IMG/VR virus record: IMGVR_UViG_2671180395_000017 | DNA length: 11,338 bases | Source: a virus | Lineage: Duplodnaviria > Heunggongvirae > Uroviricota > Caudoviricetes | Direction: 5' to 3' (one strand) | Shown here: one piece after another, positions 7,341 through 8,802 of the stretch | How the letters are laid out: each line of letters opens with the position of its first letter | Numbering within the stretch: the stretch's first letter is position 1 | Notes under the pieces: generated by a model | Seen by the model: the letters and a program-made list of their open reading frames with translations, nothing else | Databases searched by the model: none | Told to the model about the DNA's origin: nothing | Position numbers and translations under genes: made by a program

Positions 7341-7607
7341 ATGACCGACACCACCATGCAATTGCTCAGTCAGGGCACAGACCACGTGAAAGTGCCGGAT
7401 TTTGATATTCTCGCGGAGGGTAAAACGCTGTCAGGCGTGGCAGAGCGCCTGATGAGCCTGTCACTGACCGACAACCGGGGATTTGAGGCGGACCAGCTCA
7501 CCATCACGCTGGATGATGCAGATGGTCAGTTGCAGCTACCGCCACGGGGCGCGCGCCTGACGGTTCTCATTGGCTGGAAAGGAGAACCGCTGACAGAAAA
7601 AGGCACT
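7341..7607 (+). pseudogene. P2 gene D-like tail protein, 5' fragment (89 codons) truncated by IS30
   Basis: ATG at 7341 preceded by GGGAGGGAA. Translation MTDTTMQLLSQGTDHVKVPDFDILAEGKTLSGVAERLMSLSLTDNRGFEADQLTITLDDADGQLQLPPRGARLTVLIGWKGEPLTEKGT carries the gpD N-terminal motif LTDNRGFEADQL...LDDADGQ...LP.RGA.L. The frame runs directly into the IS30 inverted repeat at 7608. Confidence 0.8.
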
Positions 7608-7614
7608 TGTAGAT

Positions 7615-8725
7615 TCAATCTGTCAATGCAACACCCCTTTCAATTATCTCTTTCGGTGTTTTGAACTTCAGTGTCTTTCTCGGTCTGTTGTTTAGCTGAG
7701 CAGCAACCAGATCTTCATGTTGAGTATATTGGGCAAGACATGTCTTTTTAGGAAAGTACTGCCGAATTAGCCCATTTGTGTTCTCATTTGTTCCCCGCTG
7801 CCAAGGACTCTGAGGATCGCAGAAGTAAACTTTAACGCCGGTGCTGACAGTAAATTCTAGATGTCTGGCCAGTTCCATTCCTCTGTCCCATGTCAGTGAT
7901 TTTCTGAGTTCTGACGGTAAACTCAGGAATTTGTCGGTAAGAGCCTGATTTACTGAGACAGAATCTTTGCCCCTGAGTCTGAGGATGATCGTATAACGTG
8001 ATTTTCGGTCTACAAGTGTGGCTATATGAGAGTTTTTTGTACCTGAGACTAAATCGCCCTCCCAATGCCCTAGAGAGCGTCTGTNNNNNNNNNNNNNNNN
8101 NNNNNNNNNNNNNNNNNNNNNNNNNNNNNNNNNNGGCTACGAAAGTACAGCGTTTTATAAATTGTCTCAGGTGATATTCGCAGCGTTTTTTGACGTGGTT
8201 TTGTTCGCCTTAACCATCCTGATATTTGCTCTGGAGACCATTTCATCTCCAGCTTTTCCAGAACAAGCTTTCGCAATGGTAAATTTTGATCCAGTAAGCA
8301 CGGTTTTGGCCTTTTCGCCATTCTGTTGGCTCGGTTATTAGCATCAACAGCTTTGTAATAGCGTCTGCCCCGATTACGCNNNNNNNNNNNNNNNNNNNNN
8401 NNNNNNNNNNNNNNNNNNNNNNNNNNNNNCGATTACGCTGAACTTCACGTGAGATCGTCGAAGGACTGCGATTCAGCGCAGTAGCTATCGCACGAATGCT
8501 CATTTTGGCTGACAAACCAGCTCGTATCTCCTCGCGCTCAGACAGTGTCAGGTGAGCTACAGCCCGCTTACGCTCATGGGGTTTTATGCCGCCAGTATCC
8601 CTTAACATAGTGAAGATCGTTCCGGGTTTTGAACCCAGGATATTCGCTATTTCACTGAAGCCTGTTCCGTTCTTCCATAGTTCAAAAACAGAGGCTTTTT
8701 CCTCTGCTGTAAATGTTCGTCTCAT
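7615..8725 (-). CDS. insI: IS30 transposase (DDE), interrupted by two runs of N
   Basis: Minus-strand ATG at 8725 gives MRRTFTAEEKASVFELWKNGTGFSEIANILGSKPGTIFTMLRDTGG...STISREVQRN, then a gap, then ...RGRRYYKAVDANNRANRMAKRPKPCLLDQN...YFRS, then a gap, then ...RRSLGHWEGDLVSGTKNSHIATLVDRKSRYTIILRLRGKDSVSVNQALTDKFLSLPSELRKSLTWDRGMELARHLEFTVSTGVKVYFCDPQSPWQRGTNENTNGLIRQYFPKK...RGVALTD and stop at 7615. Co-linear with the IS30 transposase from memory. Confidence 0.9.
8085..8134. other. Run of 50 N (gap of unknown true length) inside IS30
   Basis: Exactly 50 n characters. The flanking coding sequence corresponds to transposase residues roughly 48 codons apart in canonical IS30 as I recall it, so the run is not to scale. 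Confidence 0.9.
8380..8429. other. Run of 50 N (gap) inside IS30, flanked by a duplicated 9-mer
   Basis: Exactly 50 n. The sequence cgattacgc occurs on both sides (8371-8379 and 8430-8438), whereas the transposase reading frame needs it only once. Confidence 0.9.
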
Positions 8726-8802
8726 TCAAAAAAACTCCGCAACCCCATGTTTTCACATAACTGTTGCGTTGACCAATTGAATCTACAGTGGTCTGTTTTA
8801 AT

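Follow-up and report, generated by a model that had tools for sequence, protein, structure and literature searches.

A gene D–IS30–nin join in Escherichia coli O157:H7 prophage DNA: very probably a scaffold join through a repeated IS30

In a stretch of 11,338 nucleotides recorded as viral DNA in IMG/VR (IMGVR_UViG_2671180395_000017; the whole stretch is called the window here), a P2-type gene D breaks off at an IS30 element, a lambdoid nin region follows on the other side of the element, and the dinucleotides flanking its two ends differ. Does this arrangement exist in a chromosome, and what became of the target duplication? A preliminary description, made from the sequence alone, held that the two flanks had not been contiguous before the insertion and offered three routes to the join: that IS30 had mediated a deletion, that two copies of it had recombined, or that a scaffold had been joined through a repeated IS30. 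The last of these is favoured by our analysis; the join is very probably an artefact of draft assembly, and the window most likely is not a faithful stretch of chromosome, its source being an ordinary O157:H7 strain and its form that of a short-read de Bruijn scaffold.

When 5,426 closed E. coli genomes were searched, the window proved to be E. coli O157:H7 DNA, pieced together from at least four contigs (Table 1). Positions 1-8787 match 2,604,500-2,613,278 of the Sakai chromosome on the plus strand with 99.9-100% identity (prophage Sp13), positions 8760-9823 and 10092-11338 match Sakai at ~3.488-3.491 Mb on the minus strand (prophage Sp17), and positions 9874-11338 are found as one piece, with 100% identity, at ~0.9 Mb in many closed O157:H7 genomes (an Sp3-type prophage). 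This last contig equals Sp17 only from 10092 onward, where the two are one SNP apart. By these matches, three prophages are strung together in one 11.3-kb window.

Table 1. Contigs, spacers and genes of the window, in order of position
Feature	Position	Strand	Remarks
Contig 1	1-8084		prophage Sp13
IS3-family element fragment (IS629/IS1203)	1-307	-	cut by window start; left boundary of Sp13 tail-gene block
P2-like prophage Sp13 remnant	423-7183		99.9-100% identical to Sakai and other O157:H7 closed genomes
Tail-fibre assembly gene	423-839	+	
Hexapeptide acetyltransferase	883-1455	-	
gpU	1612-2100	-	
Tape-measure gene, frameshifted	2113-4916	-	
gpE-region protein	5067-5432	-	
Tail tube	5487-5999	-	
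Tail sheath	5999-7183	-	
Gene D (P2 late control D / tail protein), codons 1-89, broken by IS30	7341-7607	+	target CT 7606-7607
IRR-side IS30, 414 bp, transposase C-terminal part	7608-8021	-	100% identical to Sakai locus L001, 13608-14021
IS30 segment common to Sp13 copy and truncated Sp17 copy	8022-8683	-	in window: 63 nt, 50 N, 245 nt, 50 N, 254 nt
Scaffold spacer, 50 N	8085-8134		real missing sequence 147 bp (Sakai locus L001, 14085-14231)
Contig 2	8135-8379		IS30 piece, identical to both Sp13 and Sp17 copies
Scaffold spacer, 50 N	8380-8429		real distance -9 bp; cgattacgc on both sides
Contig 3	8430-9823		prophage Sp17; Sakai locus L038, 2610-3955
IRL end of IS30, Sp17 type, from the Sp17 copy	8684-8787	-	includes 49 bp (transposase start) without counterpart in O157:H7 Sp13 copy
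Sp17 sequence: GT flank, TATTTC VNTR, HNH endonuclease, 5' part of Sp17-type ninG	8788-9823	+	
TATTTC x17.8 array	8802-8908		
HNH_3 endonuclease gene	9103-9669		
Sp17-type ninG, 5' part	from 9644		
Scaffold spacer, 50 N	9824-9873		neighbouring contigs really overlap by 96 bp (distance -96 bp)
Contig 4	9874-11338	+	third, Sp3-type lambdoid prophage
ninF 3' end	to 10006		contig 4
ninG	9996-10619		contig 4; NinG PF05766, E=3e-87
Ser/Thr phosphatase (calcineurin-like)	10616-11281		contig 4; Metallophos, E=4.5e-17
Q, start only	window end		contig 4

The left part of the window is a remnant of Sp13, whose gene families between 423 and 7183 were assigned with Pfam; the IS3-family fragment at its edge corresponds to a Sakai repeat_region ('IS1203 Family: IS3 partial') and to the transposase ECs_2637. 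Translation bore out that gene D ends after codon 89 at the IS30 repeat: the reading frame from 7341 comprises 89 codons (MTDTT...LTEKGT) before it meets TGTAGATTCAATCTGTCAATGC / TGTAGATTCAATCTG... at 7608, the IRR end of IS30. Pfam returned no match for the 89-aa or the 116-aa fragment of gene D, and the identity of the gene came from tblastn against phages, where the 89 codons and the 24 codons of the downstream Sakai continuation form a single alignment over residues 1-113, 96.5% identical to gene D of phage P88. In addition to this homology, the fragment lies beside the sheath/tube operon, with the divergent sheath gene adjoining it as in P88.

A standard IS30 measures 1,221 bp and encodes one transposase of ~383 aa (HTH plus rve/DDE). 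The element in the window spans 7608-8787, that is, 1,180 bp including 100 N, with the second terminal repeat ending at 8787 (...CCAATTGAATCTACA). It carries the ~26-bp imperfect inverted repeats of IS30 (TGTAGATTCAAT...), the arms 7608-7633 and 8762-8787 lying within a 37-nt inverted repeat (I1), and it shares at least 99% identity with elements that bear the annotation 'IS30-like element IS30 family transposase'. The flanks do differ as described, CT (7606-7607) on the left and GT (8788-8789) on the right, and the window thus shows no 2-bp target duplication. The element itself is a composite of two copies, made of a part from Sp13, a shared part and a part of Sp17 type. Among the IS30 copies examined, the sequence of 7608-8021 is confined to IS30(a), as we call the Sp13 copy, and is absent from IS30(b), the copy in Sp17; the shared segment really comprises 700 identical bp; and in the IRL end (8684-8787) the window and Sp17 read ...agttcaaaaacagagg...aaaaaaactccgc..., in contrast to ...agttccaaacctccgc... 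in Sakai Sp13. Within the shared 700 bp no SNP was found by which a crossover or switch point could be placed, and the collapsed repeat at 8022-8683 is not phaseable by assembly.

To the right of IS30, the repeat array, HNH gene and nin genes of the preliminary description were all recovered, and the RefSeq order NinF, NinG, Ser/Thr phosphatase and antiterminator marks a lambdoid nin region, which in the window is itself pieced together from two prophages. The stretch 8788-9823 is colinear with 8028-9040 of locus L002 in strain 20R2R and also with Sakai Sp17 at ~3,489,609-3,490,596 (minus strand). A 98-aa ORF spans the TATTTC array.

Three runs of 50 N interrupt the window. Two of them lie inside IS30, as had been seen before; the third, ~1 kb downstream (9824-9873), had played no part in the earlier argument. 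Set against the real distances between the neighbouring contigs (Table 1), the runs are scaffold spacers of fixed size and not masks; at the second, contig 2 ends at 14476 of Sakai locus L001 and contig 3 starts at 14468. Instead of a single locus with consistent gap sizes and flanks, the window presents three spacers, contig ends at repeat edges and three prophages. The observation from which the preliminary description started stands, but its assumption of one contiguous piece of genome fails.

The closed genomes show what the two halves of the join look like in place. In Sakai, the gene D site reads ggcaCT-IS30-CTtacattgttgatgaa... / CTtacattgttgatgaaatc..., the frame continuing as YIVDEIAHEGPPDRLSARSADFR / YIVDEIAHEGPPDRLSARSADFRDVNR (stop). 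With IS30 and one CT removed, the Sakai sequence is colinear with P88 across the site (97.5% DNA identity), and homology to P88 ends 73 nt beyond the site in O157:H7, where the rest of gene D was lost by a later deletion. The sorbitol-fermenting O157 strain 493/89 has the same insertion, a full-length 1,221-bp IS30 with CT/CT flanks, and in-silico excision of IS30 and one CT yields a full-length ORF of 369 aa, 98% identical to P88 gene D (366 aa); in the O145 strain RM8843-C1 the site is empty. Flanking CT/CT with gene D resuming straight after the element was found in 253 closed genomes. As read from these sequences, IS30(a) in Sp13 is a simple insertion after codon 89, with a CT/CT duplication of 2 bp and gene D resuming directly. 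A comparison with intact gene D had been proposed in the preliminary description, which would also have counted itself refuted if the remainder of gene D followed straight after the far end of IS30. P88 has the gene uninterrupted, 493/89 and Sakai show the missing continuation after CT, and all closed genomes examined have the remainder of gene D at that place.

The Sakai Sp13 copy (minus strand, 2,612,107-2,613,278) measures 1,172 bp and lacks 49 bp near its IRL end through a deletion. In Sp17, which in Sakai sits at ssrA, IS30(b) is an IRL-side remnant of ~804 bp (ECs_3505; plus strand, 3,490,597-3,491,400), neighboured by the HNH gene ECs_3504 and NinG ECs_3503; one end of it adjoins a lipoprotein (BamE-domain) gene, the other GTGGTCTGTTTTAATATTTC.... 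The junction of IS30(b) with GTGGTCTGTTTTAATATTTC is the right junction of the window, base for base, and IS30-GT-TATTTC-HNH, the junction of the truncated IS30 in Sp17, is present in 280 closed genomes. Both copies are defective, IS30(a) being without the transposase start and IS30(b) without the IRR end. In Sakai they lie 877 kb apart in different prophages and in inverted relative orientation, and they are inverted in OK1 as well. That the two flanks had not been contiguous before the insertion was therefore right, one belonging to Sp13 and the other to Sp17. Since the CT and GT flanks stem from two IS30 copies, no duplication ever existed to be found, and its absence is to be ascribed to the scaffold rather than to the element. 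The real features represent the ordinary decay of defective prophages (see PMC2669165), and the Sakai reference already carries annotations for the interrupted gene D, both IS30 copies and both prophages.

How common is the hybrid? When one place in a genome was required to cover at least 80% of the query, neither the whole window nor a gapless 2.3-kb hybrid query was found in the 5,426 closed E. coli genomes (0/5,426 for each), and a biological join of gene D to the nin region, as the preliminary description had it, is not supported. The draft contigs bearing the gene D fragment measure only 5-10 kb in 1,908 of 3,052 index blocks, which indicates that most of them break in IS30. Among the IMG/VR contigs with the left junction, eight of twelve end inside IS30 (in one case precisely where the shared segment begins), and all four that cross the element are canonical with CT/CT flanks; the contigs with the right (Sp17) junction are canonical in three cases out of three. 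One gapless draft contig of 10,255 bp, which surfaced in a look-up of the HNH protein, carries the same hybrid (QGVP01000087.1 of GCA_003359575.1, our locus L026; recorded in two samples). Its IS30 is intact (1,221 bp, with a 383-aa product containing HTH_38 and rve domains), and its end lies 127 nt past the Sp17 SNP, so that it came from a different assembler. At a 3-bp indel at 7714 this contig has the +TAG allele and the window the deleted allele; in closed genomes both alleles go with the canonical structure. Two hybrids with different 7714 alleles fit recurrent assembly error better than one inherited rearrangement, and an occasional mis-phased contig is expected given the thousands of O157 drafts indexed. 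The literature on the hexamer VNTR or on the QGVP accession yielded nothing useful.

A scaffold join of this kind could have come about as follows. The real genome would have two unrelated IS30 copies, one interrupting the Sp13 gene D (IS30(a)) and one in Sp17 (IS30(b)), and their 700-bp shared segment would have been collapsed by the assembler; the scaffolder would then have left the Sp13-specific contig, crossed the collapsed pieces of IS30 and gone on to a contig in which the IS30 tail is fused to the Sp17 flank. The false link may have arisen through contig 3, which consists of 254 nt of shared IS30 and the Sp17 flank, so that read pairs from the true Sp13 copy would connect contig 1 to contig 3. 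We infer that it was the scaffolder, and not the cell, that chose this path. Contig 1 reaches exactly 63 nt into the segment shared by the IS30 copies before it stops at 8084, and contig 3 ends (9823) exactly 63 nt past the last Sp17-specific base (T at 9760, in the comparison of the Sp17 with the Sp3-type ninG). The minimum gap of 50 N and the contig overlaps of 63 nt resemble ABySS at k=64, which we take as a likeness only. At the third spacer, a 5' fragment of ninG precedes the 3' end of a foreign ninF and an entire ninG, an arrangement that was found in no closed genome and is not produced by simple recombination. This second chimeric join, ~1 kb downstream of the first, means that the scaffolder demonstrably chains contigs through collapsed repeats. 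On the artefact account, the orphan ends would be CTTACATTGTTGATGAAATCGC and ...GTCAGAAAAACGAAT followed by CTATATGAGAG.

The inverted IS30 copies could, however, give exactly the same junction through a real inversion. RecA-dependent recombination in the 700 identical bp common to IS30(a) and IS30(b) would flip 877 kb and leave a hybrid, full-length IS30, with the reciprocal junction, the lipoprotein gene and the IS30 remnant followed by CTTACATTGTTGATG, elsewhere in the genome. The copies have the required orientation in Sakai (minus strand for the copy at 2,612,107-2,613,278, plus strand for that at 3,490,597-3,491,400) and in OK1, the relative orientation of the two prophages differs in strain 20R2R, and the predicted product matches both the window and the gapless QGVP01000087.1 exactly. 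Moreover, inversions on the megabase scale between repeats do occur in O157:H7 (PMC7430833). We nevertheless regard an inversion as improbable. The hybrid is absent from all 5,426 closed genomes, as against 253 and 280 with the canonical junctions; the window join is held only by N-spacer links between contigs ending at repeat boundaries; and the same scaffold has a demonstrably non-linear join at 9824-9873. Sp13 and Sp17 lie on the same side of the terminus, and the event would therefore be intra-replichore, flipping rrnG and ribosomal-protein genes, whereas the inversions documented in O157 straddle the terminus symmetrically and have their endpoints in lambdoid prophages (PMC7430833). The different 7714 alleles in the two hybrid drafts would call for two independent events, so that the inversion, if real, would be recurrent or reversible. 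That some O157:H7 strains, among them the sources of the window and of QGVP01000087.1, carry such an intra-replichore 877-kb IS30 inversion and that the sampling of closed genomes has missed it is, in our opinion, just as doubtful.

IS30 promotes deletions and inversions via joined-end intermediates, leaving non-matching flanks, and the CT/GT flanks of the window are of this kind. An event driven by the transposase (deletion, inversion, replicon fusion via (IS30)2 or intramolecular transposition) could hence be proposed, none of which would leave a target duplication. We give this hardly any credence: each junction already exists on its own, identical to the base, in every closed O157:H7 genome, where it forms the end of an older defective copy, and since neither copy is intact, neither could make a new transposase-dependent joint at exactly these ends. 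Of the routes offered in the preliminary description, adjacent deletion by IS30 is excluded, the flanks lying 877 kb apart, inverted and in different prophages, and recombination between IS30 copies is geometrically possible but found in no closed genome. That the N runs are deliberate 1:1 masks over contiguous sequence, with the join being real, can draw on the masking of stretches as N in some sequence collections, but it is refuted, and its probability negligible, as runs of 50 N replace +147, -9 and -96 bp and bases are duplicated across two of them.

With a scaffold join through the repeated IS30 as the best explanation, the locus carries little biological weight, but it calls for caution: missing duplications and 'IS-mediated fusions' in short-read scaffolds can come purely from collapsed IS copies. 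The marks of the artefact here are the N spacers of fixed length, the contig ends lying one k-mer's length inside a repeat, and the comparison with closed genomes. Were the inversion true, an unusual intra-replichore, IS30-based variant would be added to the known structural variants of this pathogen, and a full-length, potentially active IS30 might have been regenerated.

Four known systems frame the window. Sp13, the P2-like remnant equivalent to CP-933T (gene D = ECs_2646/ECs_2647), is 99.9-100% identical to 1-8683 of the window and has the IRR junction at the same base; its IS30, however, has the 49-bp IRL deletion and is followed by CT, 24 codons of gene D, ECs_2648/2649 and the leuZ tRNA, whereas the window has the undeleted IRL end and then Sp17 DNA. 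Sakai Sp17 is colinear with 8022-9823 and 10092-11338 and has an identical IS30-GT-TATTTC junction, but its IS30 is truncated at position 418 and adjoins the lipoprotein gene (ECs_3506) instead of gene D, its TATTTC array has 9 units as compared with 17 in the window, and its HNH gene and ninG have no ninF fragment intervening. Escherichia phage P88 (Peduoviridae, Xuanwuvirus) shares the layout of sheath, tube and divergent gene D, with a gene D protein 96.5-98% identical, but its gene D is intact, encodes 366 aa and is without IS30. Finally, the repeat-mediated inversions of O157:H7, such as the 1.15-Mb Sp6/Sp14 inversion in FRIK804 (PMC7430833), resemble what the window would require in that inverted repeats lie in two prophages, the sole biological route to the join; the documented inversions, however, are terminus-symmetric, have their endpoints in lambdoid prophages and were verified by closed assemblies and PCR, whereas the event needed for the window is intra-replichore, based on IS30 and present in no closed genome.

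The IS30 copy that interrupts gene D of Sp13, the P2-like prophage remnant of E. coli O157:H7, carries a 49-bp deletion in O157:H7 strains (at 14712 of L001, the Sakai Sp13 locus, corresponding to window 8684-8732), by which the start of the transposase is lost. At the same insertion site, a full-length IS30 is found in several non-O157 E. coli as well as in the sorbitol-fermenting O157 strain 493/89, whose genome has 16 places matching IS30 (nine in EDL933, six in a typical O157:H7 strain). Gene D of O157:H7 is truncated a second time 73 nt past the IS30 site (L001 14780-14855; 4743-7676 in L037, another comparison locus), and this truncation is due to a deletion later than the insertion of IS30; 493/89 retains the whole 3' part of gene D, a YecA-family gene and ogr. 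Based on a 3-bp indel (TAG) at window 7714, in the Sp13-specific part of IS30, O157:H7 strains fall into two groups: the window, as Sakai, has the deleted allele, and L026 (QGVP01000087.1), the other draft contig bearing the Sp13-IS30-Sp17 hybrid, has the +TAG allele. In several strains (loci L008, L012-L014, L025, L053), IS629/IS1203 is inserted within one or other IS30 copy, so that one IS is nested in another; the insertion point is at about IS30 position 976-981 for the Sp13 copy and about 892-897 for the Sp17 copy.

Among the other Sp13 genes, the tape-measure gene has been split, giving two ORFs that overlap, and is annotated in Sakai as the pseudogene ECs_2640. The hexapeptide-repeat gene, flanked by gpU on one side and the tail-fibre assembly gene on the other, looks like a moron.

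Coordinates of features in the window
Feature	Window position	Strand	Remarks
Hexapeptide-repeat gene (LbetaH / serine O-acetyltransferase-like)	883-1455		Sp13; low GC
Sp13 tape-measure gene, two ORFs	2113-2949 and 2826-4952	minus	overlap 2826-2949
TATTTC hexamer array	8802-8908		adjoins Sp17 IS30 remnant

The TATTTC array is a hypervariable VNTR: the window holds 17 whole units (17.8 copies by TRF), L026 16, the 'culture mutant' 20R2R about 13.8 and Sakai nine, and the spans in strains Z1830/Z1831 suggest about 21-22. Besides the IS30 join, the window contains another chimeric join at 9824-10091, where the ninF 3' end and the ninG start beyond the N run originate from an Sp3-type prophage; 96 bp that stand ahead of this gap are repeated after it.

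At 2.35 Mb and 4.54 Mb of NZ_CP062160.1, the Sakai-sized genome of 20R2R, one strand carries both the Sp13 and the Sp17 segment, unlike in Sakai and OK1, and therefore some other large inversion has one endpoint between them. The HNH-ninG module is common to different lambdoid prophages, because other O157 strains have Stx prophages (L022, L023, L034, L035) with an identical gene for the 188-aa HNH endonuclease, located upstream of both ninG-ninH-Q and the genes for Shiga toxin A/B.
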